A stretch of DNA of 64,000 nucleotides. It comes from Bilabrum cf. latius (taxonomy: Eukaryota). Every line of letters starts with the position of its first letter. Position 1 is the first letter of the stretch. The notes under the pieces are model-generated. The model did not search any database and was not told the DNA's origin. It was given only the letters and a program-made list of their open reading frames with translations. The DNA lies in the NCBI GenBank assembly GCA_965178125.1, contig OZ237752.1, forward strand, positions 1 through 64,000, written 5' to 3'. The translations under genes and the position numbers were made by a program. Shown here piece after piece: positions 3,257 through 44,605 of this stretch.

Positions 3257-5638
3257 ATGCAGTTGCTTGAAGAATCGCGACAGCAGCCGTGGCTGTAGCG
3301 ACTGGGTTTGTTGACCAAATCAGCTTCGTAGCAAGTATCCAACAGTGAAGTCACCATTCACGGCAGTATCAATGTGTGAGTGATAGCAAGCATTGCATAG
3401 CATCTCCGCCATGTACATAGCATCTCCGCCATGTACTGTATATATGCATCGATTGTGGCCTTTACAAGCCAGTTTTGAGCGGCTCCTTGCAGGTGGATCC
3501 GAACCATGAAATTCGCATGGCCCCGGCAGTTGCTGCTGGTCTTAACCGCCGTAGTCCTCACTCAATTGCTTTCACTTAAGAACCTGCTATCACCCATGCT
3601 TCTCGGCACGCTAATCGACGGCGTATCACACTCAGCAGAGGAGTTGGGGGGGTCCGACAACAGGGACACTTACGTGAATCCCAGCAGCGGCAGAGGAGCA
3701 GGATCCGTTAGTTCTACAGAGGATGCCAATGTGTAGGCACTAGAATCTAGTGGGGGATCTCTCAACTGGTTATCAAGCGCTGCACCGCATAATTTTGGGA
3801 CGTTGGGGCAGTCACTTTTGCTGCTGCTTGCAGTGGAGATTGGGGGGGCCCTTCTAAAGGGTCTTTAGGAGGTGGCTACAGCTGAGCTCGGCGACAGAGT
3901 CACCCGTGATACCAAGTAGAGATTCATGCAGAGCGTACTAGCGCAGGAGCAGGCCTTCTTCGACAACACGCACACCTCGGTGCTATCCCAGGCGTACGAC
4001 CAGCTTGGGCACGTGTACGCGATGGTGGGGCAGCTGCTGCCCGACGCGCTCCGGAACGTGCTACAAGTAGGTCTTGCGGCAGCATATCTGCTTCGATCCA
4101 GCCCCGCGACCTGCGGCGCGCTGGTTGCGCTGCTGCCCGTGGTGGCCCTGGTGGAGCGGGTGTGCGACCAGCTGGTGAACGAGGCCCGGCTGCAGCTGCA
4201 GGCGCTGGAACGGGAACAAGCCAAACACAGGGGAGAGAGCTTGCGGGCGGTCGGTGCGATCAAGGCGTGGTCCTGGGAGGACAGGAGGTGCGGCGAGTAT
4301 GACAAGCTACTGGAGGAGGACGCGAAGGTTCGCACGTGGCTGACCATGGTGAAGGGGCTGCGTGGGGGGGTCAATGCGCTGACCCTCGCACTGGCGTCCT
4401 CGATCACGTGGTACATGGGCCTGCAGGAGGTGCAGACGGGGGTGCGCACCATCGGGCAGCTGTCCGCCAGCGCGGTGATTGTGGAGAGGCTGCGCACAGG
4501 GCTCGCCACGATGCTCAAGCAGAGCAGGCAGTTCTTCGAACACACCAGGGATCTATCTCTGGCCTATCGCATCATCGACCGGGTGCCACGCATGCAGTTG
4601 AGGTAGCTAGAGGACTGCAGCAGCGAAGTGGCACGTAGGGGGTCTTCGGAGGAGACAAGGGGGGCAGGAGGGGGTTCAGCGGAGGAGACTCAGGGGGCAG
4701 GTGCGGGCAAGTCCAGTGGACACATGCAATCAACATTGAGAACACCTCGCCAACCAATCCGCGTGGTGTTTGAGGGGGTCAAATTCCGTTACATTGCTGA
4801 CAATAGCCTGGGAATCAAGGAGCCAAGGCGGGGCCAGGGCCCACAGGGAGCAGGGCAAAGGAAGCAGCATCAACACAGGCCCTCCTCTGCCTCATCAGAG
4901 GGCAAGGGGACTAGTGCGGAGGTCCTCCGCGGGCTGGATCTGGTGCTCGCGCCGGGCAAGGTGACTGCAGTGTGCGGGCCCAGCGGATCTGGCAAGAGCA
5001 CTCTTGCTGCCCTGGCTCTGCGGCTGCACGACCCGACCGAGGGGCGAGTGCTGCTGGATGGACGAGACTTGCGGACCGTAGATCCAAGTGCACTGCACGC
5101 TCGCACTGCAGTCGTGAGCCAGGACCCTGTTCTGTTCTCTGCGTCCATCCGAGAGAACATCACGTTCGGGTGCAGGAGGCGAGACACTGGCCCCGGGGGA
5201 GGGGCATCCTCGGTGGAATTCAGCCTGGAAGAAGTGCAGGAGGCAGCGCGGCTAGCGCACGCACACTCGTTCATTACCCAGAAAGAGGGTGGGTACGACG
5301 CGCAGGTGGGGGAGCGGGGCTCGCAGCTGTCTGGGGGCGAGCAGCAGAGGGTGGCCATTGCCCGGGCCATCTTGGCTGATCCGGATCTGCTCGTGCTGGA
5401 TGAAGCCACCAGCGCGCTGGACGCGGTCAGTGAGGGTTAGGTGCAGCAGGCTCTGGACCAGGTGATGCAGGGGCGCACCGTGCTAGTGATCGCGCACAGG
5501 CTCGCCACCATCCGGAAGGCCGATCATATCGCCGTGTTGCGAGATGGGGTCATCGCAGAGCAAGGCACGCATTCCGAATTAATGGGGGTGCAAGGTGGCC
5601 TGTACAATGATTTGGTTCGTCAACAGGATGAATCCTAA
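3257..5638 (+). CDS. ABCB-type half ABC transporter (TMD+NBD)
   Basis: Walker [11 protein letters not shown]-loop VSQDP, signature LSGGEQQR, Walker [13 protein letters not shown]-loop IAHRL. Likely intron 3376-3492; the 5' exon is less certain. One frame interrupted only by TAG (3296, 3329, 3734, 3866, 3917, 4604, 5438). Ends TAA. Confidence 0.9.
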
Positions 5639-6042
5639 CCCAGGGGGTCCCCAATTTCAACCGGACCGCGGCAAGGAAAATCTAGATTTGGGTACATATT
5701 AGCACGCAACAATTGACTTCGCGAGGTTTTTTACAGTCCTTGCAGCTGCATCTTACTAGGAAGGTACCCAGGTAAGAGACTGGGTGTTTACTTTACTATC
5801 CCTTTACTTCTTTGTGCGCTGGGAACGTTGAAACAATGCCGTCGTGGGTGTTTGCTGGCCATGTTGTTGTAGTCGTTGAGTCGTGGGTGGTTTGCTAGCG
5901 AGGCACTCAACGCACTGATCCCTGATTGCAAGTCTTTTCAGAAACGGTCCTTGAGTCTTATTGTAAATCTGGCACTCTGTGCGTTTGCGCTATTATTTCG
6001 TTCTAATCGGTTGGCTACATCGTGCTATCGCAGCGAACCGCC

Positions 6043-9303: not shown

Positions 9304-11214
9304 ATGTATTCCCAGCAGCAATCTGCAGGTTGGCAGGCAGGTGGCGGCGCTGGGGGACACGGAGATGGAGCCAGCATGGGTGCTGGGGGTGCCTATGGAG
9401 GGCAGCGATAGTATGGTGGTGGGCAAGGAGGCCGCGGCCGTTCGAGCGGCCCCGGGAACCACAAGTCGTCCGTGATGGAGAGGTTCGTGCATGGACGGTA
9501 CGTAAGGCAAGATCGTGCAAGCAAGACGCAGTCTGCATAGGCTAGACGTATGGAGCGAGAGGAAGAGCGGAAGCGCGGCTTTTTCGTTGTATCAGCTCAT
9601 GACGACGCTGTCGCACATACAGGTAAGAAGGTTCACAGCCAGGTTCAAACTGTTTTCCGCAATCCATGGATGCTTATATCGCGTAATAATTGCATCACCT
9701 CGTTGCGCCGCCTTCTACTCGCAGCCGGCAATGCTGCCAGCTTCATGCTGGCAGGCCCTGCGTTCGGCGGGGAGGAGCCCAAGCCCGAGGACGTCCCGTG
9801 CGTGACCATCCAGGGGATGGGGCGGGCCGCCACACACGCCATCGCGGCGGCCGAAGCGGCGAAGCGCCTCGTGCGCGGGTCCCACTCGGTCACCACGGTG
9901 GGCAACAGCGTCCGGGAGCAGGTCTGGCTGCCCCTCGAGGAGGGCCTGGACAAGGTGGTCATCAAGCAGGACGTCGCTTGCGTCACCATCGTGCTCTCGT
10001 GCTCGCCACAGGCCCTGGCAGCCGCCGCCAAGGATGCGGGGGCTGTATACTTGGGCGCTGAGGACGCCTCTGACGTCCGCTCGCTGGTCGGCTACTCGGG
10101 CCCTCTGCCATCCGCGGAGGTGGCGGGGGGACCCCCGGGCCCCGAGGGGCTGGCCGCGATGGATATGGCCCTCCGGCAGGTGATCGAAATCATGCAGGTG
10201 GCAGACCCCATGCAGCCGGTGGACATGCCGCAGAGGGACAGCGGCAGGGGCCGAGGGAGAGGCGGGAGGGGCAGGGGCCGAGGCGGCCGGTTCGGGGGTG
10301 GCCGGGGCCGCGGGCGCGGGCGCGGAGGGTTCCACTCGGACTTTGGTGGGTTCATGGGCGGTTTCACGGCCGGTTACGGCGACCCGGGCTACCAGGCCAT
10401 GATGGCCGCAGCCCAGATGCAAGCGGCGCAGGGGGCTGGTGCGGGCGTGGCCCCTGGTAGCCCGTACATGGCGGGGGGAGCCCCTGGCCCCTGGGGAAGC
10501 GCACCCCCCGCGGGCGGTGCCCCGGGGGGTCCGGGTCCAGCCGCTCGGCAGTGGGGTTGGGCGGGGGCTCCGGGGGGTGCCCCTGGTCCCCAGGGTGGGG
10601 GTGTGCCCCCTGCCTCTGGCGGGATGGTGCCAGGGTCCGCAGCGCAGTGGGCGCAATACCAGCAGATACAGCAGCAGCAAGCGTACCAGCAGCAGCAGCA
10701 GCATGCCGCCTACATGCAGCAGTAGCAGCAGCAGGCTGCCGCTGCAGCCCAGCAGCAGCAGCAGTAGCAGCAGGGCGGTGCGGGCTTCCCGTCTGGGTAC
10801 GCTGCATCGGCCGCGGTCCCGGGAGCTGTCGCTGAAGGCGGCAAGCCCACGCCGGAGGCAGGTGCTGCAGGTGCGGCAGGGGCTGGGGCTGGCCCTGCTG
10901 GGGAGCGCATCGTGGATGTTGTAGACGCTTAGAACCAGAAGAACATGAGGCGCATCACTGCCCAGCGGTCGGCCTCTCTGGAGACGCTCTCGGCGAGGGC
11001 TTGCGCTGCCTACGGGGTGCCTGCGCTGGCACTCTACGGGGTGGAGCAGCCTCCCGGGGAGCAGGCGCGGCTGGTGGCGCTGGGCTCGGATGCGGCTCTG
11101 CAGCAGGCCTGGATGCAGGCGGAGGCGCGGGGCGGACCGCAAGCCAGTCTGGTCGTGTATGCGCAGGCGGTGCAGGCGCAGCCACAGCAGGCAGGAGAGG
11201 CAGGCGCCACGTGA
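9304..11214 (+). CDS. Alba (Rpp25-like) protein with RGG box, polyQ and a small C-terminal domain
   Basis: TIQGMGRA...AEAAKR...VWLPLEEGLD...VTIVLS resembles the Rpp25/Alba family, followed by RGG repeats. Probable intron 9623-9724. In-frame TAG at 9409, 9538, 10723, 10765 and 10930. Ends TGA. Confidence 0.8.
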
Positions 11215-11400
11215 GGCCAGACCAGGGTTCGCGGTCCCATGCATACATGCAGAACAATTGACAGCATCGTCCACGCGCGACCGAAGGTACACCACAAGTA
11301 CACAAAATGAATCGTACTGCAGCAACCTGCGCAACCTGCACACATGACACGCCCATGATTCAATGGCACCCCTACTGACGAATACAGAGCATCCATGTAC

Positions 11401-13177
11401 AGTGATGTTTGGGCCGATAGTGGTATACTGATCGGATCAATTCCGAGTACGAGCTGAGCGAGACCAGCGCTCTCACTTAGGGGAATTCAGAAGAAGATAA
11501 AGGAAATAATTTTTACTTTTTATGGAATTGTTTCTTGTCTTGTTGGCCCCATTTCCTTCGGATATGGATGGGGCGGCATCGCGGCGGAGGCCGGGAGGTG
11601 AGGGGGGACCAGTAGTTGGCGGACAACAGAGGGGCCTACAGCTGAAGGGAGGGGTGCCAGGCGGATAAGGTTTACTCAGCGAGACAGGGCGTCTTAGGGG
11701 CGGGTAAGTGTGTGTGTGTCACTGCTGCCAGGTAGTGTGTGTAATATTCTCTTGGGAGGGGGGGCGGAGGCAGACCGCTCCTCCTCCCTCCGCACTCAGT
11801 ACCAGCATGAACCAGCCCTCTTTTCTGTTCATGTGGACCCCCTGACAACGGGGGGACCACGTGGCACCCACGCAGGATGGCGACGCAGATTCGGAGGGTA
11901 CCAACACTCATACCTAGCTACCAACATTTAAGCGTTGCGGAGGGCAACGGAACGGGGCCAGGGAAGCTGCGTGCGTCTAGCCATCTAGAACACGTGGATG
12001 AACTGGTGGTGGCCTTTGCCACCATCCCATTTCACCAACCAGATGAGGCTCCGTGGTCGCATCTGGTGCCGATGGCCACTGTTAGCAGGACCGTTGGTGG
12101 GTGGCTTGGGGGGCCAGGGACTTGGCTGAGTCAAGTAGGCGTGGGAGTAGGGGTGGGTGCGGTCAGTATGAGGTCCGTGCCTCATGTTGATCGCTGTAAA
12201 TCCGGCTATAGGTCGGAAGCAACCCACCCTCCCGGTTGCAACAGTGGGGACGGGTGTGAGGTGGCCACGCGTGAGGTGGTCATGAGACTGGGAGCAGAGG
12301 TGTGGTCCGTGCCGTAAAATCCCCCATGTGGAGCACCTCTGTTTTTCTGGAAGCACAAAGAACCGCGTTGCGGGCCCAGGAAACTTCTGTCCTTTGGATG
12401 GCTCCGTGGCCGAAGGGGGACAGAGTGACCTGCACAGCCGAGAGGAGAGCCTGAATCTCGGATCGACCCTGGGACAGTCGCACCGGCGACACCCACCGAG
12501 AGAGCGAGGCGAGATCCTGCACAGCGTACGCTGCAGTGGAGGACCACTGTGGTGCTGCAAGAGGCACGGCAACGTGCGGACAGCAGCCGGACCCCGTATC
12601 CTCACAGAGGGTAAGGCAATGGGAGCCTGAATAGGAGCGGACCGGGTGACGACTGTGCTGGGGCTGCGGTGAGCATACAGGACCGTGTCGAGCGTGGTGG
12701 GCTGGGCGGGATGTGCGAGCGGTGATGCCCTAACTCGATCGAGTTCAAGATTTTTTCTTCTTTTTGCGTGGTGGCGTCCCCTAGGTCGGGGCGGCGTGGG
12801 TGTTCCTTGCGGCGTTCGATGGGCGAACAGCCAAAAGGGGGGCCCAGTGTAGATCCCGTGGCCAGTGGCAGGTAGTCCCCATAGCGGCTTGAAAGGTCCG
12901 TGCCGCCTGCCCAGTGCCCGGGGAAGCACCAGCCAAAACCAAAGCGCCACGGAAGGAGGAGATTACGAGGAGCAGGTACTAGGTACGAGAGTGGAAGCTG
13001 AGGGCAGGACAAAGCGGCCAGCCGGGCCTAGGCGGCACGGAGACGGCCGTGCTAGCGACAGACGAGTGGGCGACGGTGGGTAGCGGCGCACGAGTGGCGC
13101 GTGGCGGGAGAGGGAGAGTGCTGGGGGAGCGAAGCATTGAGCGGTTGATCGACAGATCCACATTACCAACCATCACC
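11401..13177. mobile_element. Possible degenerate non-autonomous element with imperfect inverted ends
   Basis: The largest gene-free gap in the window. 11401-11478 aligns loosely, with gaps, to the reverse complement of 13111-13177. No recognisable transposase or RT. Confidence 0.25.
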
Positions 13178-13262
13178 AAACTGTTGCTCTGGCGCTAGTG
13201 CAGCGCACTGTAGGCAACCGGGACGAAGCGTCACGGATCCACAATTGCAATTGAAGCTTCTC

Positions 13263-14773
13263 ATGCGATCCCTTGTTGCAGCCCTTGCTATTGTTGCTGC
13301 AATTCCATCCCTGGCTCTTGACAATGGCCTGGCTAGGCTTCCCATGCTTGGTAAGCTCCTGCCCGCTGGCGCAAGATCAAGCTGTTTTTCCTAGCCATGA
13401 TATACCCACGGCTCTAGCTTGCCGTATTCGCAGGATGGTCTAGCTGGAATGCATTCGGCTGTACAGAAGCTATGAATGAAACTAGCATTAAAAAAGTCGC
13501 CGATTTTATGGCTTCAGAGGGACTCCTCGCAAGCGGCTACAAGCTGATCGCGCTTGACGACTGCATGGTTTCAAGGGACCGTGACGCCTCTGGTAACCTA
13601 GTTGCGGATCCTAAACGTTTCCCTTCAGGCTTTGAATCGTTGTCGTCCTACCTTACGAGCCGCGGCTTCCTGTTTGGTGTTTACAGCGACCGTGGCAGTT
13701 TGACATGTGCTGGTAGGGCCGGTGGGTATAACCACTGGGAGCAGGACGCAGCCACATACAAATCATGGAATGTATCTTGGCTGAAATGGGACAGCTGCCA
13801 CGACCCTGATCAGTACCAGGACAACACGCTGTACCTGAACGAGCAGATGACCAAGGCGCTCAATGCAACCGGGCACCCCATTTGGTTCTACATGTGAGGA
13901 AAAATGGGCTCCAGCCATCGTTAAAGCATTGCACTGTATCACTAGTCCATCTCGATATCTATTGATGCCCTGCCACCCCGCAGCAAACAAGATCTGCGCC
14001 CTGGAGGGTTCGCAGGCATGGCGCGGATCAGCAACAGCCATCGTGTGGCCAACGACATCAAGCCTTTGCCCTCGGACACGGGGCGCCTGGCCGATGCGCT
14101 GGCCCCCATCCAGCGGTGGTCAGGCCCCGGGTCGTTCAATGACGCGGACAGCCTGGAAGTGGGCTCCCCCAAGGCTGCTGGCAGCAAGTACCCGGGGCTC
14201 ACCCCCATGGAGCAGAAGGTGCAGATGCAGCTCTTCTCCATCGCGTCCGTCCCCCTGATCGCCGGGTTCGATTTCACCATCACCCCCGAGGAGCTCACCA
14301 TTCTGAAGAACAAGAACGCCATCGCGGTCAACCAGGATCCGCTGGGCGTGCCCGGGGAGCGGCTGCACGCCTCCCGCACTGGCCTCGGGGAGGTCTGGGC
14401 CAAGCCAATGGCGGACGGCTCCTTCGCCGCCATGCTGTGGAACAGGAACAACACGTATGGCCACTACACGCGCATCATGGGCATCTACCTGAATTTCGCT
14501 GAGCTGGGATTCGAGGGGGAGGCGGACGTCTACGACATGTGGGCGGATCCGCCGGTGCACCTGGGCTCGTACAACGGCGTCATCGGGAACCAGACTCTGG
14601 CCCCTCAGGACTCGATGTTCCTCAAGGTGGTGCCTGCCAAGGGCAAGAGCTCGCTGACCGGCACTGGGTTCTGGGGCCAGCGCGCCACCTCAACCCCCGA
14701 CTGCGAGTCGGCTGGGTTCCACTCCCATTTCTGGTGCGACGAGCAGCTGCAGAGCAGGCATTCGTCGCAATGA
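13263..14773 (+). CDS. Secreted GH27 alpha-galactosidase
   Basis: Signal peptide followed by LDNGLARLPMLGWSSWNAFG, LDDC, ADPKRFPSG, FGVYSDRG, LKWDSC, AVNQDPLG. Introns 13351-13433 and 13894-13983. Ends TGA. Confidence 0.95.
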
Positions 14774-25069: not shown

Positions 25070-25214
25070 GTAAGGCTAGGTGGCAAAACATGTCAATGAT
25101 CGGATCAATGCGGTGGTGATCCGGATCCGGATTTGTCAGGGAAAAGAGCCACATTCGAAATTCGAATAGACTGCGAATCGGTGATCACGCAGTCTGGAAT
25201 AGCAGGTCGCGGGG

Positions 25215-29218: not shown

Positions 29219-29489
29219 TTAGAATCTGGAATTGACTGTAATCGCAAATTTTGCCCAGAGCTCAAACACTTTCCCGCTTTCTTCTTCATATTTGTAAGCA
29301 GCAGGAGGTATTAAAAAACAGAAAGATTTTTTGGATCACAGAACGCCACGGTTGCCTGGCAGACCTATCAAATGCACAGAATGGCGAGTAATTGTGCTGA
29401 ATTATGGTTTACCAAGTGGTTATTGAGCATTGGTACCGCAATATCATTTCCAAGTCGCAGCGCAGATCGCCAACCGGGACGGGCGCACA

Positions 29490-30287: not shown

Positions 30288-30682
30288 TAAACTGGTAAGT
30301 TACCCGCTAACGAACCTGCGCAGTCATGCCAGCGGTGATATATGAGACATGTTGGCTAACATTCAAGTGACGATCGTTTTATTCGTAAAATTGGCTCAAA
30401 GACAAGCCTATGGGCAGCATACGTGAGCACCAACCAGTTAAGTTCGCAATTTGGCACCTACGCATGAGACTTAAACAAGCATTCACATAAGCAGACGCTA
30501 ACTCACGCTGATAAATAACCGAAGAAGCTATTTACTAGCCCAAGTATACTGCACGTGACGTTGTGGGCGCTCTCTTATCCAGCAACAGTCCGGGATTCAA
30601 AACGACACCTCACATTGAAGGATAAACCAGAGAGGTCCAATCGTGCCGCTGAGTGCAACCACGACGAAATTTTCTTAAAAGA

Positions 30683-31589: not shown

Positions 31590-31868
31590 ATCTCTCCGAC
31601 GACTGGTCTCGACTTGGCCGAATTGAAATAACCAGACAGCATAGTATTGAATCCGCACCAGGCCAGCCGTGCATCTCGGGGCTTCAAATAGACTTTCCGT
31701 AGCGCAAACATGTGTCCAAACGTTTGTCTCGTGGAGCAGGACAAACTCCCTCTCATCAGCAGAGCGGCGCTTCGCCGCACTCCGAATCTGTGAAAATGGC
31801 GAGCGCAAGATGGCATAGCCCTAAGCAACCTACATCGGCTTCGGACTGAAGACTAAGGGAATAACAAT

Positions 31869-33860
31869 ATGATTGGCACGTTGGTGTTGATTGCGGCATG
31901 TTTAGCCGCGGGGGCCGCTGTCGGGGCGGCATTCCTGCGAGAGAGCGTCGGTGCTGACATTGCCAACTACTACAAGGATCTGGAAGCGGTACTCCTAAAC
32001 CTTGACAGTACACAGGCAATCATTGCATGCTCTATTGCGTTGGGAGCCGTAATTATCCTCTTCGCTGGGGTGTGGGGCGAAACGGGGCTCTTCTCTCAGT
32101 CTGTACCTCGCGTGCTAGTCAACATGCACGCAGACTCTCTCTGCGACGAAACCGGGAGAGAGAAGCCTTCTGACAAGAAGTATAGCAAGTCTTCAGGCAA
32201 CGATACGCAGGCCCCTGCTGATCCTGCCGCTACCGAGCAGTGGATGCGAGCTGACAGCTCCAAGATCCGCGCGCTGAACCCCTCCACCGGTCGTGCTCTG
32301 CCCCCCATCCAGGTGACTTCGCCGGAGGAGGTGCGCGAGACCATCGCAGACGCTAGAGAGGCGCAAAAGAAGTGGGCAAAGACGTCGTTTGCGGAGCGGC
32401 GCCGCGTGCTGCGCTGCATGGCACAGGCGGTGCGCGACCACGAGGACTCGATCTGCCGCCTGTCCGCGCTGGACACGGGCAAGACGCACGTGGAGGCGTA
32501 CATGGGCGAAGTGATGGTCACGCTGGGCAAGATCCAGTGGGTGCTGGACAACGGGGAGGAGACCCTTCGCCCCGAGGCCCGTGAGACTGGCATCCTGACG
32601 GTGCACAAGACGGCCCGCGTGGAGTACCAGCCGCTGGGCGTGCTGGGGATCATCGCGCCCTGGAACTACCCCTTCCACAACCTGTGGAACCACGTGGTCT
32701 CGGGTCTGTTCGCCGGCAACGCAGTCGTGCTCAAGGTCAGCGAGTACTCGGCCGTCTCTGGGCACCAGTTCACCGAGCTGGCCCGGGCCTGTCTGCGCGC
32801 GTGCGGGCACAGCGCCGACCTTGTGACGCTCGTGCAGGGGTTCGCGCCTACAGGGGCAGCGCTGGTGAGCGGCGGCGTGGACAAGGTGATCTTCACGGGG
32901 TCTCCTCAGGTGGGCAAGCACGTGGCGCGTGGAGCCAGCGAGAGCCTGACTCCGTGCGTGCTTGAGCTCGGTGGCAAGGACCCGCTGGTGGTCACCGAGG
33001 ACGCGGACCTGGACCAGGTGCAGCACATTGCGGCGCGGGGAGCCCTGCAGAACTGCGGCCAGAACTGCATCGGGGTGGAGCGCTTCGTTGTGTACGAGAG
33101 CGTGCACGACGATTTCGTGGACAGGCTGGAGAAGATCGTGAGGGGCATCCGGCAGGGGGCCCCCCTGCGGCCCGACGGTCGGTGGGCCGAGGGCGTGGAT
33201 CTCGGGGCCACCACGACGGGGGCGCAGCTGTCGCACATTCAGGCGCTGGTGGATGACGCGGTGGCCAAGGGGGCCACCGTGGTGTGCGGGGGCAGGGAGA
33301 ACACGGAGGCCAGGGAGGCGGCGGGCGGGGGCTTCTACTTCGAGCCGACCATCCTGACGGGGGTGCGGCCCGGCATGCGCATCCACGAGGAGGAGGTGTT
33401 CGGGCCCGTGTTCTCCGTGATAAAGGTGCCGAGGGACAGCGACAAAGAGGCCGTACGGATGATCAACGCGAGTCCGTACGGGCTCGGCGGCTCGGTCTTT
33501 TGCAGGGACGTAGCCCGAGGCGAGAGGATCGCAGGCGCGCTGCGGGCGGGGATGATGAACGTGAACGACTTCGGGCTCAACTACTTGGCGCAGTCGCTTC
33601 CCTTCGGAGGTGTGGGTGTGTCGGGGTACGGCCGGTTCGCGGGCAAGGAGGGCTTGCGCGAGTGCTGCCTCATGAAGAGCGTGACCAGCGACAAGTTCTC
33701 CCTCCTGGGGGTGAGGACCGCGCTGCCGCCCCCGCTGCAGTTCCCCATCGGGTCCGGCGCCGTTGGATTCGCCCGCGGGCTGGCGGATCTGGCCTACGGG
33801 CGCTCTCTGGCGGAGCAGGCCGGGGGAATCTGGAGCCTGGCCACGGCGCGGGCGGATTGA
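31869..33860 (+). CDS. Aldehyde dehydrogenase with N-terminal hydrophobic anchor (ALDH22/Msc7-like)
   Basis: IAPWNYPFHN, FTGS, LELGGKD, catalytic GQNC, EEVFGP, LPFGG. Intronless, no TAG. Ends TGA. Confidence 0.93.
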   Translation: MIGTLVLIAACLAAGAAVGAAFLRESVGADIANYYKDLEAVLLNLDSTQAIIACSIALGAVIILFAGVWGETGLFSQSVPRVLVNMHADSLCDETGREKPSDKKYSKSSGNDTQAPADPAATEQWMRADSSKIRALNPSTGRALPPIQVTSPEEVRETIADAREAQKKWAKTSFAERRRVLRCMAQAVRDHEDSICRLSALDTGKTHVEAYMGEVMVTLGKIQWVLDNGEETLRPEARETGILTVHKTARVEYQPLGVLGIIAPWNYPFHNLWNHVVSGLFAGNAVVLKVSEYSAVSGHQFTELARACLRACGHSADLVTLVQGFAPTGAALVSGGVDKVIFTGSPQVGKHVARGASESLTPCVLELGGKDPLVVTEDADLDQVQHIAARGALQNCGQNCIGVERFVVYESVHDDFVDRLEKIVRGIRQGAPLRPDGRWAEGVDLGATTTGAQLSHIQALVDDAVAKGATVVCGGRENTEAREAAGGGFYFEPTILTGVRPGMRIHEEEVFGPVFSVIKVPRDSDKEAVRMINASPYGLGGSVFCRDVARGERIAGALRAGMMNVNDFGLNYLAQSLPFGGVGVSGYGRFAGKEGLRECCLMKSVTSDKFSLLGVRTALPPPLQFPIGSGAVGFARGLADLAYGRSLAEQAGGIWSLATARAD

Positions 33861-34319
33861 GCTGGCGGGCCTGATTTGGATCGAGTTGGCTGGCTCGGCG
33901 GGCCTTCCTCTCGTCTGGGGGCGATAGTCTCTGCCCTGCGGGATCGGCTCGGCTTTGAAAGGGGATCGTGGTGGAAAGGACTCTGGATGGGACCGCCTGG
34001 TACCGTGCTAGAGATTGGGTAGAACGAGCGGGTCGACGAGCTCATACGGAGCTAGCTGCCCTGGGTGTCCCCCCGCAGCATCTTGCCGCCAGTGGCCACT
34101 CTTTGCCGAGCTCGGAGGGCTTGTCCTCTCTCGCTCCGCGGAGACCACGGCAGTTGCTGCGTCTGTATTTTCAGCTATAATTTCTGTGTATTTTACGCTG
34201 CGTTGAGCCACACCGCATTTCCGTGGCTGCCCCGGCGCCGCGCGGACCGGTGGCGGGGTTTGCGGATCTCGCGACCCGAACGGGTCAACAAGTGAAGTCG
34301 GAACGGAAATTGTCGGACT

Positions 34320-36116
34320 ATGGCGATCAAGAAGCAGAAATACGACGATTTCCCGCCATGGTTCCCACATGCTGCCGTTCCGCCATACCTGCACGTTGCA
34401 TGGTGGTTCTTTTTCTACCACCTCTTCATATTGCCCGTTTGGGCTCCACTGCAGTTCGCCTTGTTCGGTAGGCCCCCGCTCCTTCACAAGGCTGAGAAAG
34501 ACGGGCGGCATTCTGTCTACGGCTACACATGTAGATCACTTTTCTATACCTTGGTGAAGGAGCTGCACGATGGTGAAGGCAGCAAATCGGGCCGTGCACC
34601 GCCAGGCGTCGGCCTAGCCGCAACAGGTGCCGACGAAGGTGCCACCAGTGGAGCTGAGCTGCACCAGCTTTCTTCAAATAGTGGTGGTATGGCACGGAGT
34701 TACGGGCGCAAAACGGCCTCGGTGACTACATCCCCGGGAACGGAGGCGTCAGCGGGCAAGTGGGCGTCCGAGGGGGCTGAAGCCTCAGCCCCGCACGCGT
34801 GGTCGTGCCGGGGCAAGAAAATCCTAGTGTCCCCACTCATGCATAGGAACGGCTTCCTGGCTGTCATGCAGAATGCCTGCAAGGACGACCCCAGTCGCCT
34901 GATTAGCGTGGATTTGGACGTCAACCCCGACTGCACTGGGTCCTGGCGGCTGGTGGTGCCCGATGGCAGCGGTGGCAGCTCTGCGCTCCCCGAGCCCAGC
35001 GAGGTGGGCATGATTGTCATCACGCACATGTTTGGCGTCAGGTATGGAGTCGATTGGTGCGAGCCGTACCGCAGGGCAGGTGCCCTCATCGTGGAGGACA
35101 CGGTGCAGGGCGGGCCGTACACGCGGTGGAAGGCGCAGCCGGGCATCGACGTGAGCCTCTTCTCGGCAGGGTAGGACAAGCTGCCCACTGCCATGGGAGG
35201 GGGCATCATGGCGACACACTCGCAGGCCCTGGCCAAGGCCGTGGCCGATCGCGTGGAGGCCTATCCGCAGGAGACGGTGCTGCAGCGGCTGTGGTTCATG
35301 CTTCTCAAGGTCCCCACTTTCCTGCTGTATAACCAGCCCTGGTTTCTGGTGGGGTTCTCCATGCTGCTGCGGGTGCTGGGCAAGACCCTATTTGACACAG
35401 CGCACGCGTACCGGAAGGCCAACAGCGGCTTCGACCACGACAACTTCGAGCGGGCCCCGTCCGCCGGTCTCCTCCTTGGCCTGCAGCAGCGGTTCACCAA
35501 CCCGCTGCAGGACTTCGAGAACACCGCCATGGCCCACCGCAAGAGGCTCAGGCAGGGGCTATCACCCGAGGCCAGGGCGTTCTTCTTCCCCTGGTACCAG
35601 GCCACCGGGCTGGGGCAGGACGGGACGGACCCGTCCCCCCCCACTGCGGAGCGCAGCCCGGCAGAGGGGGGCATGCAGGAGCTGAGCGCGCCCAATGACG
35701 CGGGGGCGGGCGAGGACAGGTGGTGCAACCCCAGCGAGGACCTGTGCATCTACCAGCACGTGCACGTGGGCGAGGACAGGCTGGGCTTCCTGCGGCAGCT
35801 CCAGGCCGCAGGGTTCATCGTGACGCACCAGCAGACGTGGGCGGCCCAGGACGCGGATCGGTGGTGCAAGGTGCTGGGCCGCATGTGCCTCATGCCTGCG
35901 CCCGTGGCTTTGAGCGGGAGCAGCATCGATGCAATGGCGGGTGCGATGGAGCAGTGGTTCAGTGATGAGTGCCAGCGGCTCGAGAGGGAGGGTAGGGTGC
36001 AGTGGGGGGCCACTGGGGCTGGCGGGGGCAAGGGCAAGGGCAAGGGCAAGGGCAAGGGCAAGGGCAAGGGCAAGGGCAGGAAGCGGCGAGGATCTAGGGG
36101 CGGCTCGCAGGGGTGA
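34320..36116 (+). CDS. DegT/DnrJ/EryC1/StrS-like PLP-dependent enzyme
   Basis: IVITHMFG, IVEDTVQG, SLFSAG[TAG]DKLPTAMGGG (PLP-Lys motif). N-terminal hydrophobic segment and C-terminal (GK)n tract. TAG at 35172. Ends TGA. Confidence 0.7.
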
Positions 36117-36301
36117 TGCTTGGCACTGGCTGTGCCTCATAATCGCTGCTCATAATGCACCGTGCGTTTATCCAGGCGCATGTCTTGGCGCATGCATGCT
36201 GCTTGCTGCTGCCACGTCGCAAGTGGCAGACTCGGAATCTCACGGCCCAACATTCGCCCGGCTGGTCTGAGCCTACACTTGAACCAAAAAGGCCGCAAAG
36301 A

Positions 36302-36884
36302 ATGGAAGCCCTTAAGCCTATTCTAATTGACCCTCTTTTCTGCCTAGCTGCATTCTCTGGGTGAGTTTCCCTTTCGTGCGAAAAGTTTGTAGCTAGGTGA
36401 CGGCAGCAGACCAAATCCAAATGCGCGTTCAAAAGAGTTGGTTCGCAGGATGGTCTTGGTGCCCCACTTCATCAAAGGCTTTACGATTTTCTTTTCGGAT
36501 AAAGGGTACAACAATATTGACCCGCGGAAAGGAGCCGAGGCTGCCATCAAGAGACTCAACGATGCGGACGACGCAAGCAAGAAAGCGACGGCTCGGTTCA
36601 TATCTCGCTGCATTGGCTGCCACCAGAATTCTTGGGAGGCTCTTGCATTTTTTGCAGCGGGTGTGCTCGCAGTGAAGGCGGTGGGCCTTGATGGGGATCT
36701 GGTCAAGCAGCTAAGCCTCGCGTTCCTTGCGGTTCGAGCCGTTTATATTGCGCTCTATCTCGGGGGCACGTCAAGGCCGGTCGCAGGAGCGAGGTCTATT
36801 GTATGGGCTGCAGGCACCGTGATTTCGTTCACTCTGATGATTCTTGCGGCTCGCAAGGCAACCGCTGACGAGGCGTCATCGTGA
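36302..36884 (+). CDS. MAPEG-family membrane protein
   Basis: YNNIDPR...RCIGCHQNSWEAL..F...RAVYIALY...ARSIVW. Intron 36361-36448. Ends TGA. Confidence 0.85.
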
Positions 36885-37087
36885 CTAGCTCCCCGCCGAA
36901 GATTCGCAGTGTGTGAACCTGGGGGAAGCCCTACCTCCAACTTGGATAGTTGATTGAACTACCGAGACTCATACTGCGATGTACGCATGCGCGCAGCTCA
37001 CGCGCAACCACCTCGCGATGAATTGCAACGGCCACGCTGTGCTCGCTCGCTCCGACAGATCCTCCCAGACGCTCTGTGCTAATAAAC

Positions 37088-38826
37088 TCACTTCCCGCTG
37101 CCGCTGCTCGCAGCCGCACCTTCGCCTTCCCCTCCACTAGCACCTGCTGCGGTCTTGCTCTCCACCCCAGCCCTGCCCTTGCCATCCCCCCCGGCGCCCT
37201 TCTGCATGGTTGCAATGGCCCCCATCATCCCCCCGCCCTCGCCCAGGTCGGCCCCCAGCGCCCGCGCCACCTGCTCCATGTCCTTGTCCCCGCGCCCGCA
37301 CATGTTCACCAGCACCCTCTTCCCCGGGCCCAGCTCCTTGGCAAGCAGCATGGCGTGCGCGATGGCATGGGATGGCTCCAGCGCGGGGATGATGCCCTCG
37401 CACTTGGACAGGGCCTGCAGCGCGCCGAGGGCCTCCTTGTCCGTCACAGACACGTACTCGGCCCGCCCAATGTCCTTCAGGAACGAGTGCTCGGGGCCCA
37501 CGCCGGGGTAGTCCAGCCCCGCGCTGATGCTGTGCGTCTCCGTGATCTGCCCGTCGCCGTCCTGCAGCAGGTAGGTCCTCGTGCCGTGCAGCACCCCGGG
37601 GGACCCAGCCGACAGCGTGCTCGAGTGCTTGCCCGTGCCCACCCCATCCCCGCCCGCCTCCACGCCCACGAGGCGCACCTCCTTGTCCCCCACGAAGCCC
37701 TCGAACATCCCGATGGCGTTGCTGCCGCCCCCCACGCACGCCACCACCGCGTCCGGAAGCACCCCTGCCTGCTTGAGCATCTGTGCCCTGGCCTCCCTCC
37801 CGATCACCGACTGCAGGTCACGCACGATGGAGGGGAAGGGGTGCGGCCCGATGGCCGACCCGATGATGTAGTGCGTGGTCTCCACGTTCGTCACCCAGTC
37901 CCGCAGCGCCTCGTTGATTGCGTCCTTGAGCGTGCGGCTGCCCGACTCGACCCCCACCACGCTGGCGCCCAGCATGCGCATGCGGAACACGTTGAGCGCC
38001 TGTCTCTGCATGTCCTCCGCCCCCATGTACACGGTGCAGTCCAGGTCCAGCAGGGCGCAGGCAGTGGCGGTGGCCACGCCGTGCTGGCCTGCCCCCGTCT
38101 CGGCGATGATGCGGCGCTTGCCGATGCGCTTGGCCAGCAGCCCCTGCCCCAGGGCGTTGTTGATCTTGTGCGCCCCCGTGTGCGCGAGCTCTTCCCGCTT
38201 CAACCAGATCTCCGCGCCGCCGACCTGGTCGGAGAACCGCCTAGCCAGGTACATGGGAGTGGGGCTGCGAGGGGGGCGGGAGAGGAGATGGCAATGGGTG
38301 GGGGTGGCGGAGCAGTTACACGCTTCAAGCTACTCAAACACTCTCAAGAGATAGCGATAGCCACCAGGTTCGCATGACAAAACCGGCAAGCATCGGATGA
38401 CGGGGCGCTGTTGTGGCGCCGTAGCCGTGACGTACCCGCCTCCACTGAGTTTCGTACCGCCGGCACAGTCAATGGCGCGGCATCTCACCGTCCAATGTAA
38501 TCGCGCCCAAGAGTCTCGAACTCTTCGCGAAACTTCGGGTCCTTGCTAGCTTCCACGTACAGCGTTTCTAGCTGTTCGTGGGCCCGCATCAGTGTCTCGG
38601 GGATGAATCGCCCGCCAAAGTCGCCGAAGCGAGATTTGAGAGCCGCTTCATCCTCATAGATAGGCGGCGCATTAGTGATTTCCAACACAGGGTTGTCGAT
38701 GTGAACAACCTTGTAGCGCTCCGTGCCGGCGTCGATGGCGGCCTGCGTTTCAGCAGTCAGAGGAACATCCTTTGTGACCGCGATTGGTGCCGACGAGACC
38801 TTTGACTCTTCCGAACTAGCTGACAT
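37088..38826 (-). CDS. trpB: Tryptophan synthase beta chain (stand-alone)
   Basis: [70 protein letters not shown]. Intron 38265-38488. Ends TGA. Confidence 0.97.
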
Positions 38827-39022
38827 TTGTAATATTCGCGTGCAGATACAAGTAATAAGGGCAAAATGTCCTTCAAAAGGCCTCTAGAGTGCAAAGATCG
38901 ACCGGGCGCAACCTTTCCCGTGGTTGGACCCGGAGCGAAATATTTCATGGACTGTGCTGCCGCTACCGCAGGAAACACTGTGTCCCACGGTACCCCAACC
39001 AATTTCACGCGCTCACACTCCC

Positions 39023-41398
39023 TTACGCGTATTGTGGGGCCATGCTGGATGCATCTGCGCCCTGGATGGCAGCCTGCAGCGCCGCCTCGGCCCGCAGCCC
39101 CGGGTCCACGGTCACCTTCCTGAGCTTGTGCGCATCATTGTTGAGCCGCAGCGTGTAGGCCAGCTTGGCCAGGATCTGTCTCCGCTCGAAAGGGGAAGAT
39201 GCGATGTACCTCACGGTCACAGGCGCAGCCCCCGCCCTGGTGTCTTCCTGGAAGGAGATGGCGAAGGCCAGCTGCGACTCGAGAGGGGCCACCCCCGACG
39301 AGGACAGCCCTCCCGCGGGGGAGGCGGCCTAAGCAGCCGCCCTGGCCCGCGCCTCCAGGAGCGCCCGGGCAGCGGCCGCGGGTGGATCTGGCACGATGAC
39401 CCTGGCGATCTGGGTCACGAGCCTCTCCCTGTTCCTCGTGGAGGAGGAGCCCATCCTCGACTTGGACGGGTCTTTCTCGTTCGTGACTCGCAACAGGTCC
39501 AGCCCAAGCAGACGCTCCTGCCTGCGCCCGAACGCGTTCACCTTCAGCACCCTCCACTCCTGGAACCGACTCGCCGTCACGATGTCGAAGGCCAGCTCCC
39601 GCTCCCTCTCCTCCTCCTCCTCCTCGCCGCCGTCCTCGCCGCCCCCGACCCCTCCTCCAGAGTCAGCCCCGGGGCCCTTGCCCGCCCGTGCACCAGACCC
39701 GCCCTCCCCGCCGCTGGAGCTTGCGCCACCGTGCGCTGCACCCGCACCGCCCGCCCCCGCGCTCGCCCTGCTCCCCCGCTTGCCCTGACCCAGCGCCTCC
39801 GCCACTGCCTCTGCCGCCCTCGTTGCTGTGATGGCGGCCGAGGCAGCGGGCACCCCCGGCGCGTCCTGAAAGGCCCTCCGCCGCAGACCCACCTGCGCGA
39901 CCCCCCGCCGGAGCAGCGACTCGGCCAGCACGTCGGGGCCCAGCGAGCGCGAGGGCGTCCTCAGCACCGCCTGGTCAGCCTCGGTCAGCCTGAGCTCGTA
40001 CGTTGCCCGGAACAGCGACAGCTTCAGCTGCGCCGCCAGCGCCTCGAGGAGGCCCCTCACCGTCGTACCCCGCAGCACGGCCACGGGCAGCTGCACGCCA
40101 GAGGGCGCCCCGCCCGCCGTGGACTGCCTCCGCCGCACCAGCGCACCCGGACCACCCGCGCCCGGCCCCTCCATCGCCTCCGCCGCCCTGGCCGCCGCCT
40201 GGATGGCCTCGTCCCCCGCGATGGACCGGGGAACAACCACCTGGAGGGTGCCCACGAACAGGGGCACGGGGGGCGACCGGCCCGAGCCAGTCGAGGCCCG
40301 CCCCGCGCTCCCGTGCCCGGACCCCCGGGGACTGCCTGCCCCGTCCGTCCCCGCACCGGCTCCTCCATCCGCCCCGCCGGCATAGGCCGCCGCTGCCGCC
40401 GCGATCCTGGCCTGCTTGGCTGCCTGCGCCCTCCTCGCCTCGAAGGCCGCCAGCGCCCCGTCGATCTCCACCAGGCAGTACTCGTTCCCTCCCACGCCCG
40501 AGGAGGAGAAGTGGCGCATGCGGCGGTCCCTCTCCAGCGCTGGGAAATCCAGGTCCGGCTCCCCACCGTGCTCGTGCATCCGAAGCTCGTAGCACCACGC
40601 GTCCCCGGGGAGCACGATGGGGGGGGGACCCCCACTCGGGGGACCGACCCCCTGGGTGGACGGGGCCACACCCGCCCCCTCCTTTCCTCCCCGCGGCCCC
40701 GCCCCGTCCCCGTGGGTTCCCGCACCGGCCACCCCCTGCCCCGGCCCGCCCGCCCCTGCCCCTGTCCCTGTCCCTGCTCCCACTCCCGACTGCCCCTGCC
40801 CCTGCCGGTCCCTCCTCGCCGTCCGCAGCACCTCGTCGATGCAGTCGTGAACCGTGGCGCGCTCCCTGACTCGAACCCGCAGAGGGAATCGGTCGGGCAA
40901 AAACACGGTCAAAAAGACCGAGGGAGCCAGGTTGCGCTGCAGCAGGCTGCGCTGGGAGCCGGCGGCAGCGTCCGAGGACGGTGCGCCTGACGGGGTAGCT
41001 CCGCCTGAAGCCGTAGGGTCGGTTCCGCCTGCTGTGCCGACGCGTTCCTTTGATAGTGCCAATCGGGGCGGGACGCTCTTCGTGGATCCACCGACGTGAT
41101 TCTTTGGTTCGCTTGCCGGCCGCTCTACGTCGGCTTTTGGGACGGTTGCTGGTGATTCTGTCTTCCTGTCACCGGCGGCGCCCCGCTGCCAGCGTTCGCT
41201 GCAGCGAATAGCGTCTAAATCTCGCACATACCCTTGTCGCGATACTGTCGTTGGCATCACGTGGTCGGCATAGGCCCCGGCGTGCGGAATATCACCAAAG
41301 AGAAGCATCTCCTCTGGAGAGGGGAGCGACTGGTGATAGCGCCCAGTCTGCATGAAACCTAATATGGAATCTAGCTCATATCTTGAAGAAAAATTCAT
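39023..41398 (-). CDS. SIN1: TORC2 subunit SIN1/Avo1-like (CRIM + PH)
   Basis: CRIM-like YELRMHEHGGEPDLDFPALER and PH-like FQEWRVLKVNAFGRRQERLLGLD. The PH domain end (FAISFQED...RYIA...ILAKL) lies past the TAG at 39329. Ends TAA. Confidence 0.8.
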
Positions 41399-41523
41399 CG
41401 CGGATGGCTGCTGTTGGAAGCGAAAATTATAGCCTGGAAAAAAACATCACGCTATAATGCAGAATCGTGATTATCAAGAATGCGTGTGTGTACTTGGCTC
41501 AGTCCTTACACGCAAGCTTAAGC

Positions 41524-42347
41524 ATGGCATCTGCTAGCGCCGCTGGTGAAGATATGATCACACTTGTCAGCTAGGTAAGCAACCTGCAACGGCTCCCAAT
41601 CCCCCTTGGAAGACAGCCTTGTTGCGACGCTCACTCCGTGGTGGCGATCGATACCGATTGTGCTGGTTCGCAGGAAGGAGAAAACTTCGAGATCCCTAGA
41701 TCTGTCGGGAGCATGTCTGTGTTGATTTCCACCATGACAGAGGACGGAGGTAAGCCTGCGGAGTTCAGCGGAGCACGCACGGTCAAACAGATGCGAGCAG
41801 GCTGCCTGCTTCTTGCGATTTGAAATGCAATCGCATCGCCGTGGCATGCAAATTTCTGCTCTCATTCTTGTTGCAGATGATGAGGAAGAGGTGCCTCTGA
41901 TGGAGGTGAAGAAGGACATCCTGGCCAAGGTAATCGAATACATGACGCATTACAAGGATCAGAAGCCTGCCGAAATCGAGAAGGTGGGTCCAAACAAACC
42001 GTCGTATTTCTTTTCAAGTATGTGACCATCAGCTGAAGCGTTGTCAATGTGCTACCACCTGTTCGTCCGCCTCGCAGCCGCTCAAGAGCAGCAACCTGGC
42101 ATCGGTGGTGGGCGAGTGGGACGCAAACTTTGTCGACCTGCCGCAGGAGACCCTGTTTGAGCTTATTTTGGCAGCCAACTACATGGATATCAAGCCGCTC
42201 CTGGATTTGGCCTGTGCCAAGGTAGCATCGATGATCAAGGGCAAGAAGCCCGAGGAGATTAGGAAGACGTTCAACATTGTGAACGATTTCACGCCCGAGG
42301 AGGAAAGGCAGGTCCGAGAGGAGAACAAGTGGGCTGAGGATGCCTGA
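41524..42347 (+). CDS. SKP1: SKP1
   Basis: ITLVS[TAG]EGENFEI...VPLMEV...ILAKVIEY...[21 protein letters not shown]...[16 protein letters not shown]. Introns 41575-41673, 41750-41876 and 41984-42077. Ends TGA. Confidence 0.97.
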
Positions 42348-42514
42348 GAAGCATACATTCCAACTTTGATAAACTGCCCACACACTCTAAAAACAAAGCA
42401 AAGTCTGTCGAGCGTGAAATTTCGAATTTACTGCACTGTGGTGCAGCTCAGGTCCGTTTTAGTGGACTCATTTGGACTTCGTTTGCTCGCTCTAATGCTG
42501 ACCTACAGCTGATT

Positions 42515-44605
42515 ATGGAGTGCCCGCAAGTAGTACTCTTGATTGATACCCGAGAAGTGATCCGAAAGTCGTCTCGAAATCTCTTTCACCTCAAACTACG
42601 TGACAGCGGCGTCGAGGCCGAGACTAGGCAGCTTGCTCTCGGTGACTTCTAGTGGGTGGTGCGGTGCCGCGAGAAACGTTCAGAACCTATAGTTGAGTAT
42701 GTTACAGATTTTATAGTGGAGCGCAAGACCGTGAATGATTTGGAGGGATCAATTGTAGACGGCAGGTATGAGGAGCAGAAAGTAAGGCTGCGGGCGTGCC
42801 CCTGTCGCAAGGTCATGTACCTCGTAGAGGGCAACCTCACTGCAAGACGTCTAGGCAAAGACGCTATCGAATCGGCTCTGGCATCAACGGTGGGTATAAG
42901 CGGCTTGCACGTGCGCCACGCCGACTCAACGGATGACGCAATTCGACTCCTCGCCTCGATGCATCGCGCGATCCGGGGCGAGGTGCTCCGGCAGTGGGCA
43001 GAGACAGTCGGGAGCGAACCCGCCTCCATTCCAGCGACAGCCAGCAGCAGCAGCAGCAGCAGCAGCCGCCCCACGCCCTGGTCCATGTCTGCCCCTCGCT
43101 CAGGAGACGGCTGGTCCCGCTGGACCCGATGGCTCCGGGGCTGGCTCCCCCCGCTGCCACTGCCACTGGCATCTCCCTCTCTTGCACCCGCTCCTGGCTC
43201 TGCCCCTGGCCCAATGCACTACGCAGCCTTCGCGCGGGAGTACTCGCGGGGCTCCTCCCGGCGCTCCCTGCTGCAGTGCTGGGCCGCCATGCTGCGGCAG
43301 GTCCCCGGCTGCAGTGCTCCCCGTGCCCAGGCAGTGCTGGCCAGGTGGGCCACTCCCAGGGCGCTTCTCCGGCGGGTTCAACAGGTCGGTAGCGAGGAGT
43401 TCGCCACGGAGGTGCAGGCCCTGCAGTCGGAGGGCAAGGCGGGGAGAAGGCGGCTGGGGCCTGCGCTGGCCCGTGCCCTGGTGGCAGCTGTAGGGCACTG
43501 CGAGGCGGCTCCTTGCAGCCACGGCAGTGAGGGCTCGTCCTCGTTCTAGTCGTCCTCATCCTCTCAGCCGTCATTGACACCCGCGGGTGGCAAATTTTCA
43601 GCACCGCATGCACCCGGCCACGCAACGCCTGATGCACCCATCAGCCCAGCCAGTAACAGCAGTCAATGCAGTAGGAGCGACAGCGATGAAGACGAGTGCA
43701 GTGCCGAGAGCGCGGGCAGCTTCAGCGGTGCACACGCCCCTTTGCGGTAGAGGCTTCTGCACCGCCGAAAGCCCCAGCAGGCCAAACGCCAGGCAGGGGG
43801 CGAGCCGTCTCAGTCTCCTTCCAAGCGTCCTGCTGGCAGCTCGGAGGGCCCTGCAATGAAGGCAAGGCGGCCTGGGCCACCACCTCTGTCGCCTCCCCTG
43901 CTATCGAGTGGGTCATAGGAGACTGCCGCCAGCAGCAGCAGCAGCAGTAGTAGCAGCAGCAGCGAATTGGATGACTCCGGTATGCGCATCCCAGGCGAGG
44001 GTGACACGAATGCGAGGTCACCGATGGCCGCCTATGGCCAAGGAACAGGCATGGTGGTGGACCTGTGTTCCCCAGATAGCATGCCCCCGAGCGGCTCCAT
44101 GTCCAGGTCGAGGAAGAGGCACAGACCGCAGGGCGGGAACAGCCACAGGCACAACAGCGCCACCGCTGGGTCTATGCGGAGCCCGCCGTTCGAGCAGATG
44201 CACCCATCCGGACAGGCGAGGCCAAGCAGGGGTCAATCCTCGCGGCATTCCAAGCGCAGGCGAACTAGTGATGGCCCCTCCTCGCCCCTGGGCTCCCCCT
44301 CTGCCGGGGCGGAGATCGAGATCGACCTGTGCACGCCCAGCACGCGAGCCAGCACGCGAGGCACGGCCACCACCGGGAGGGCATCCATGCCCATTGCATC
44401 CGGTGGCAGGGGGTCAGCGAAGAGCATCCCCGCGAGGAGCACCGGTCGCAGGCCGGGCGCATCAGGCCGCACAGGGGCAGCGGGGCCCGGCAGCACTCGT
44501 GCCCACACCAGTGAAAACTCACCGGCCCTGGCCCGAAAGGTCTAGTTCGGAGACGGGGAGGCGGGCAGTCCGGGAGAGCCCCAGCGCTCCCCTCACGGCG
44601 TGTAA
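42515..44605 (+). CDS. MUS81: MUS81-like ERCC4 endonuclease with a long disordered tail
   Basis: LLIDTRE, LALGDF[TAG]W, IVERKTVNDLEGSIVDGRYEEQKVRL, YLVEG, then HhH-like MLRQVPGCS...LGPALA. TAG at 42650, 43547, 43748, 43916 and 44543. Ends TAA. Confidence 0.85.

Follow-up and report, generated by a model that had tools for sequence, protein, structure and literature searches.

UAG is probably read as glutamine, with UAA and UGA kept as stops, in the genes of a GC-rich eukaryotic chromosome end

INTRODUCTION

Where stop codons of nuclear genomes have been reassigned, UAA and UAG have in nearly all cases shifted as a pair, and the lineages that separate the two are few. In translation table 6 (the ciliate, hexamitin and ulvophyte code), both UAR codons encode glutamine and UGA is the sole stop. 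Here we analyze the termination codons of a 64-kb stretch of DNA from a eukaryotic chromosome end (positions 1 to 64,000 of contig OZ237752.1, hereafter the window), the genes of which carry many in-frame TAG codons and no in-frame TAA codon, and in which three genes close at TAA.

The closest described system is that of the fornicate Iotanema spirale, in which UAG is assigned to glutamine and both UAA and UGA to termination (Panek et al. 2017, PMC5304391). Its evidence base is given as 730 transcripts, with UAA at 104 of 119 stops and UGA at the other 15, and the mechanism predicted there is a tRNA-Gln(CUA) together with an eRF1 of weakened UAG recognition (PMC5304391). The accessible portion of a second report describes UAG as glutamine and UAA as a stop in Protocruzia tuzeti and in two phyllopharyngean ciliate lineages (McGowan et al. 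2024, PMC11687900). Other residues have also been reported for UAG, namely leucine in the rhizarian exLh (in the available text of PMC5304391) and serine in Scotinosphaera (mentioned in PMC11687900).

Like Iotanema, the window has UAG as an apparent sense codon at glutamine columns, and UAA and UGA never occur in frame and both terminate. Unlike Iotanema, in which UAA is the main stop, the window has UGA as the main stop (22 of 25 genes), a GC-rich genome, and 64 kb of sequence as its evidence base; moreover, Iotanema is a metamonad and the organism here is apparently a stramenopile, two unrelated lineages. The codon assignments would be the same as in Protocruzia and the phyllopharyngeans, making this another case of UAA/UAG uncoupling, but the window is no ciliate genome: its chromosomes are ordinary, its telomeres are of the TTAGGG type, its introns are canonical and its GC content is about 62%. 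The table 6 code shares with the window UAG as glutamine and the use of UGA as a stop, but it reads UAA as glutamine, whereas the window lacks in-frame TAA and has three genes that end with this codon. As in exLh and Scotinosphaera, UAG alone appears to be reassigned with UAA kept as a stop; unlike the leucine and serine of those organisms, the residue indicated here by paralog and conserved-column evidence is glutamine.

RESULTS

Genes are intact when TAG is read as a sense codon

When TAG was treated as sense, long open reading frames (ORFs) bounded by TGA and TAA alone matched eukaryotic Pfam families in a scan of two sets of 15 ORFs chosen out of 93. The families were ABC transporter, BTB, 3-hydroxyacyl-CoA dehydrogenase, alpha-galactosidase, eIF3c, PP2C, Nsp1_C, Rab GTPase, NAC, aldehyde dehydrogenase, MAPEG, tryptophan synthase beta (TrpB), SIN1 (CRIM), MUS81 (ERCC4), two aldo-keto reductases, RTE1, PAN-sulfatase and an FG-GAP repeat protein. 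Single ORFs covered whole or nearly whole domains (Aldedh 1-461 of 461, Ras 1-161 of 162, ABC_tran 1-137 of 137, ERCC4 1-140 of 140, RTE1 1-149 of 149 and Aldo_ket_red 2-289 of 291), and no TAA was found inside these domains. Introns are short with canonical GT-AG borders. The melibiase, 3HCDH and sulfatase domains were each split between neighboring ORFs, and the melibiase and sulfatase breaks could be read as GT-AG introns.

TAG occurs in frame and TAA does not

Codons were counted over 28 stop-to-stop coding segments totaling 16,366 codons. The coding frame contained 61 TAG, 0 TAA and 0 TGA codons, and the two other frames of the same segments contained 41 and 51 TAA, 75 and 86 TAG, and 260 and 275 TGA codons. 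Five of the 61 TAG codons proved to lie in introns or out of frame within 5′ exons (melibiase, 13943; MAPEG, 36345 and 36390; TrpB, 38332 and 38548). With these removed and one further TAG in spliced SKP1 added, about 57 in-frame TAG codons remain, distributed among 19 genes that are otherwise intact. The first-pass annotation had counted 59 internal TAG against zero TAA; the zero stands, and the TAG figure becomes about 57 (61 before these corrections).

If TAA shared the meaning of TAG, it should be found in frame in a predictable number. Glutamine is encoded by 81 CAA and 567 CAG codons, such that CAA makes up 12.5% and CAG 87% of the 648, and applying the CAA:CAG ratio to 57 to 61 TAG predicts 8.1 to 8.7 in-frame TAA codons, of which none was observed (Poisson P of 1.6e-4 to 4.9e-4 for zero). 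Further NNA:NNG pairs predict 9 to 15 in-frame TAA under such coupling. Among them TTA:TTG gives 9 to 10, and the argument concerning TAA therefore holds even if TAG were read as leucine. The annotation had cautioned both that TAA stops are few and that GC bias would make TAA-encoded glutamine rare; the first caution remains apt, but GC bias alone does not explain the missing TAA because CAA still accounts for its eighth of the glutamine codons.

The absence of in-frame TAA arises partly by construction because the segments were delimited by TAA or TGA, and the bounding TAA codons were located individually. The upstream bound is TAA in 13 of the 28 segments. In 11 of these 13, the TAA lies in a low-scoring stretch ahead of a plausible start methionine or 5′ exon, and the remaining two (13922 and 57378) are inside GT-AG introns. 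One is a 90-nt intron of the alpha-galactosidase gene (13894..13983, plus strand) that holds in-frame TGA, TAA (13922) and TAG (13943) codons and across which the Melibiase_2 match is split. The other is an intron of the sulfatase gene (57271..57397, plus strand) that contains the TAA at 57378; the exon model here is built from sequence only, and joining the exons gives ...AKPNFLFLMVDDLR, with which the sulfatase domain is expected to begin. In Nsp1, where the ATG directly follows the bounding TAA, RNA pieces extend at most about 20 nt 5′ of that ATG.

TAA was also sought in frames that TAA had not been used to define. A total of 128 ORFs bounded by TGA contain TAA, and those overlapping identified genes were checked by position. 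All TAA codons bounding coding ORFs fall in a 5′ untranslated region (UTR), in an intron or at one of three C-termini, and no identified gene requires TAA to be sense. In a construction-free screen, which demanded a coding score of >0.15 on both flanks and no TGA within 40 codons, a single TAA was retrieved versus 39 TAG, and the lone TAA (39330, plus strand) lies in a shadow frame opposite SIN1. We conclude that the contrast between in-frame TAG and absent TAA is real.

Three genes close at TAA

The 3′ ends of 25 genes could be placed, of which 22 are TGA and 3 (about 12%) are TAA, the same tally as that of the first-pass annotation. The strong predominance of UGA among the stops is explained by the high GC content of the genome. 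TAG is needed as a stop in none of the 25, and TGA comes right after conserved C-termini such as those of SKP1, the Rab CXC motif and the NAC UBA domain. The positions of all three TAA stops were borne out by our ORF and Pfam reading.

The first TAA (5636..5638, plus strand) closes an ABCB-type half transporter (ORF 3479-5635) with Pfam ABC_membrane and ABC_tran domains. Alignments to solved ABCB/MsbA chains reach query residues 273 to 277 of 279, about 2 to 6 residues from the chain ends, and thus the TAA sits at the normal C-terminus of the family, as had been proposed from the sequence alone. Past this TAA, the frame stays open for 25 codons up to a TGA, and GC content falls from 0.56 to 0.49. 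The second TAA (39023..39025, minus strand) closes SIN1 (ORF 39026-41446, Pfam CRIM), and the coding score downstream is negative. A TGA follows 5 codons later, and SIN1 taken alone is therefore uninformative as to whether its TAA is stop or sense.

The third TAA (44603..44605, plus strand) closes a MUS81-like ERCC4 nuclease (ORF 42338-44602), which has the full-length ERCC4 match listed above and matches solved MUS81. Reading through this TAA would add 380 codons, to a TGA at 45746, antisense to a convergent ORF (44671-46812, minus strand, TGA stop at 44668-44670) that has no Pfam match. Between 44700 and 45749, coding scores were -0.20 to -0.26 in the MUS81 frame and +0.22 to +0.48 in the minus-strand frame of the convergent ORF. 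The MUS81 TAA and the convergent stop are separated by 62 nt, the distance noted earlier, and the 3′ UTRs of the two genes must therefore overlap each other's coding regions.

Two cDNA-like contigs touch this junction. One cDNA-like contig from run X5 (43079-45873) covers both MUS81 and the convergent ORF. A contig from run X6 ends at 44643, 38 nt past the MUS81 TAA, and was not counted as an mRNA end, as it comes from a single study and the X5 contig continues.

A table 6 code, in which TAA and TAG both encode glutamine, TAA is too rare to be met in 64 kb of GC-rich DNA, and the three genes run on to the next TGA, is improbable on this evidence. High GC content at third codon positions, the closure of 22 of 25 genes by TGA, and the in-frame TGA codons just beyond the SIN1 and ABC transporter TAA would all suit such a code. 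It would nevertheless leave about 8 expected TAA codons unaccounted for, give the ABC transporter 25 residues past the end of its solved homologs, and lengthen MUS81 by 380 residues along a frame with noncoding scores, antisense to a coding ORF. The earlier argument against a ciliate-type TAR=Gln code is thus supported by the codon ratio, the ABC transporter C-terminus, the scores downstream of MUS81 and the TAA-free Pfam domains. The window instead has three ORFs that close at TAA and not one in-frame TAA among its 16,366 counted codons.

TAG and TAA are unchanged in spliced and polyadenylated cDNA-like contigs

Contigs of sequencing runs were compared with the window over positions 28000-47999. 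Three runs, X5, X6 and X7, were classed as "cDNA-like" by the behavior of their contigs, not by record label, and were used for what the contigs bridge. Their contigs contain seven GT..AG or CT..AC joints that are absent in the DNA-like run X1, and their depth is very uneven; depth is nil over 35337-36003, which carries no weight either way. Loose ends with poly(A) occur after 31655 (NAC) and after 42373 (SKP1), indicating short 3′ UTRs of 66 nt and 26 nt, respectively. No usable poly(A) signal motif shared by the regions 3′ of the NAC and SKP1 stops was found.

At every TAG or TAA covered by X5 to X7, zero letters differed from the window, and the SIN1 TAA was unchanged in both X6 and X7; these codons are therefore not edited. 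Across four runs, which come from three studies, the contigs carry TAG unaltered, and these include spliced and polyadenylated contigs. Spliced models of NAC, MAPEG and TrpB based on the joints have proper N-termini and no in-frame TAA, and the TrpB motif is restored.

The contig joints also revealed SKP1, a gene absent from the ORF listing. It has four exons (41450-42373, plus strand) with joints at 41575-41673, 41750-41876 and 41984-42077, and translation across the joints yields a complete SKP1. The last codon of exon 1 is an in-frame TAG (41572..41574) in the spliced model, and a TGA at 42345-42347 closes the gene directly after its conserved C-terminus, ...NKWAEDA.

SKP1 has the highest cDNA-contig depth in the compared region, and its poly(A) site at 42373 lies within the start of the MUS81 ORF (42338); neighboring transcription units therefore abut or overlap. 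Within TrpB (37559-37760), one X1 contig has four differing bases and one inserted base relative to the window, and the cDNA-like runs match the window. The X1 differences probably stem from another allele or copy, or from an error in the contig.

The transcript ends bear on a second explanation, that TAA is a context-dependent or leaky codon (compare UAA in Blastocrithidia and all stops in Condylostoma) which terminates near mRNA 3′ ends and is avoided elsewhere. The short 3′ UTRs and the presence of a back-up TGA shortly downstream of two of the three TAA stops are as this explanation would have them. Codes with dual-meaning codons nonetheless carry such codons in frame inside genes, and here TAA does so at 0 of 16,366 positions; the explanation also adds an assumption that nothing seen requires, and we regard it as quite improbable. 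In the window, TAA and TGA terminate and never occur in frame, and TAG occurs in frame and is not required as a terminator.

TAG coincides with glutamine in paralogs, repeats and conserved columns

The residue encoded by TAG was compared with homologous positions inside and outside the window. In the aldo-keto reductase AKR1, an in-frame TAG (47353..47355, minus strand) occupies a conserved glutamine column and corresponds to CAG in the paralog AKR2. The TAG and CAG lie within a 69-codon block in which the two proteins are otherwise identical and just two more nucleotides differ, both synonymously. The same column is Q in 3 of the 3 solved reductases displayed, within the motif SPAQ(I/V)LLRW.

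Repeats within genes gave a similar picture. In the FG-GAP protein, alignment of six 69-residue repeat units places in-frame TAG codons at 63053..63055 and 63260-63262 (plus strand) in one column (...GGFTG_LD...), which is CAG in the four other units. In an RGG/Q-rich protein, two TAG codons at 10723 and 10765 (10723..10767, plus strand) lie in poly-glutamine runs, with the context YMQQ#QQQAAAAAQQQQQ#QQ.

Columns shared with homologs were also compared. A Rab5-like GTPase contains two in-frame TAG codons (30153-30155 and 30066-30068, minus strand) within its Ras domain. Among 18 database relatives, the first column is Q in the closest (P0122) and in a Chrysophaeum protein, and the second is Q in 5 of 17 aligned relatives. 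The column of the TAG in the nucleotide-binding domain of the ABC transporter (5438) varies among solved homologs and is uninformative as to the residue. On balance, the alignments point to glutamine as the residue encoded by TAG. The notion that the in-frame TAG codons are instead assembly errors, pseudogene marks, RNA-edited sites or another residue such as leucine is very improbable, as leucine or valine at two TAG columns in solved Rab5 and MUS81 homologs is all that favors it, against TAG codons that persist unchanged in four runs from three studies and in spliced polyadenylated contigs, that number about 57 across 19 otherwise intact genes, and that match glutamine by paralog, repeat and conserved column.

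The AKR paralogs (47089-48363 and 53004-54158, both minus strand) are 5 kb apart. They are about 57% identical overall outside a shared C-terminal stretch, within which the proteins are identical and few synonymous differences occur. Such local near-identity suggests recent gene conversion.

DISCUSSION

The nuclear genetic code

The difference between TAG and TAA in the window is confirmed as an observation. As for the code that underlies it, the nuclear genome probably reads UAG as glutamine and uses UAA and UGA as stops, an arrangement of the Iotanema type (translation table 15). UAG is found in frame in conserved and expressed genes and matches glutamine, and UAA is absent in frame and present at gene ends.

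Several observations weigh against this assignment. TAA stops number just three, and in-frame TGA codons back up two of them, at SIN1 (5 codons) and the ABC transporter (25 codons), where short extensions may occur. In the third, MUS81, the C-terminal 400 residues are of low complexity with a weak coding score, and Pfam gives the convergent ORF no match. The in-frame TAA count of zero is in part an artefact of segment definition, and the zero of the construction-free screen is weak because its sensitivity is about 31%: it finds 19 of the 61 known in-frame TAG codons, and about 2.7 TAA would be expected in it under coupling. Concerning the residue, solved animal Rab5 has L at the first TAG column and T at the second, and the TAG column of MUS81 is L or V in solved homologs. 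TAG codons also occur 5 codons before the stop in the sulfatase and 19 codons before the stop in MUS81, in unconserved tails, and TAG may therefore occasionally serve as a terminator. Finally, the evidence comes from one 64-kb window that includes neither a tRNA gene nor eRF1: no tRNA gene was detected in it by ARAGORN, Rfam gave 0 matches at gathering thresholds, and eRF1 is not among the genes it encodes.

UAG would be decoded by a tRNA-Gln with the anticodon CUA, which is unable to pair with UAA and differs from that of tRNA-Gln(CUG) by one base change. Because 87% of glutamine codons are CAG, tRNA-Gln(CUG) should be the dominant isoacceptor, and its genes are expected to be an abundant source of that change. 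Correspondingly, eRF1 would have lost or weakened its recognition of UAG and kept that of UAA and UGA. The stop-codon recognition motifs of eRF1 are GTS, NIKS and YxCxxxF, and in Iotanema the Thr of GTS is changed. We would predict that no tRNA with the anticodon UUA exists, because UUA would read both UAA and UAG. The anticodon logic, that CUA reads UAG and not UAA and that UUA reads both, is set out for Iotanema in the available text of PMC5304391.

The lineage

The organism looks like a heterotrophic stramenopile, judging from protein comparisons. The closest named homologs of the aldehyde dehydrogenase are from stramenopiles. In a quick, single-gene tree of 33 of the 120 matches, the protein of the window pairs with a sequence 88% identical to it, inside a group with Cafeteria roenbergensis and the EukProt row INCI, which we take to be Incisomonas, and that group is sister to ochrophytes; we treat the tree as a lead and not as a placement. 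One candidate relative, the lineage of P0001/P0122, has 88% identity in aldehyde dehydrogenase and 62-68% in Rab5. A protein-atlas search with TrpB returned clusters labeled bacterial and was uninformative on taxonomy.

No report of a change in a stramenopile nuclear code was found in a search of full-text literature, subscription papers and supplements lying outside that search. The Cafeteria genome paper, in the portion of its text available, mentions a nonstandard code for the mitochondrion only (PMC6972860). A code of this kind is already known, and what appear to be new are the lineage and the GC-rich, TGA-dominated setting.

A broader reading joins these strands: the organism would be the first stramenopile, of a heterotrophic lineage near bicosoecids and MAST-3, with a noncanonical nuclear code, and would represent an independent origin of UAG-only glutamine, driven by tRNA mutation, in a GC-rich genome that is intron-poor and assembled as far as the telomere. 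We offer this combination tentatively, as a possibility slightly more apt to fail in some part than to hold in full. Under it, GC pressure should favor the loss of UAA rather than of UAG, and mutation of tRNA-Gln(CUG) to CUA, not codon disappearance, would drive the change. The persistence of UAA as an infrequent stop (about 12%) would then be due solely to the failure of a tRNA with the anticodon UUA to arise.

If the assignment of UAG to glutamine with UAA kept as a stop is true, another independent UAA/UAG split provides a natural experiment on how eRF1 drops UAG while keeping UAA. The case would be informative as one that is GC-rich, has UGA as its main stop, and apparently comes with DNA data, RNA data and a chromosome-level assembly, and it would help to tell whether reassignment is driven by the supply of tRNA or by the loss of codons. 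The assignment also matters in practice, as gene calling under the standard code shortens the proteins of this organism in public collections. A public Rab5 prediction (P0121, 99% identical; 29493-30063, minus strand), for example, starts right after the second in-frame TAG (MIWDTAGQ...). Annotation therefore needs table 15, not table 1 or table 6.

Chromosome end and other features of the window

The window has a GC content of about 62%, lying between about 0.60 and 0.65 across most of its length, and begins at a chromosome end with telomere arrays from position 1 onward. A terminal CCCTAA array (1-884, 147 copies of CCTAAC) is followed by a subtelomeric 155-bp repeat (884-1696, 5.2 copies), a second, longer interstitial CCCTAA array (1757-2923, 194 telomere-type repeats) and a 57-bp repeat (2924-3061, 2.4 copies). 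This unusual layout (1-3061) may reflect a telomere that was healed or duplicated, or a join made during assembly.

About 2 kb (11215-13350) contain no recognized gene; a 344-codon ORF within them (11931-12962, minus strand) has no Pfam match and a GC content that is flat by codon position. An ORF of 1202 amino acids (49229-52834, minus strand) had no homolog at E<=1e-5 inside the length band searched. The FG-GAP gene (60704-64000, plus strand) encodes a large secreted-type protein with at least 6 near-identical 69-residue units and runs past the end of the window.

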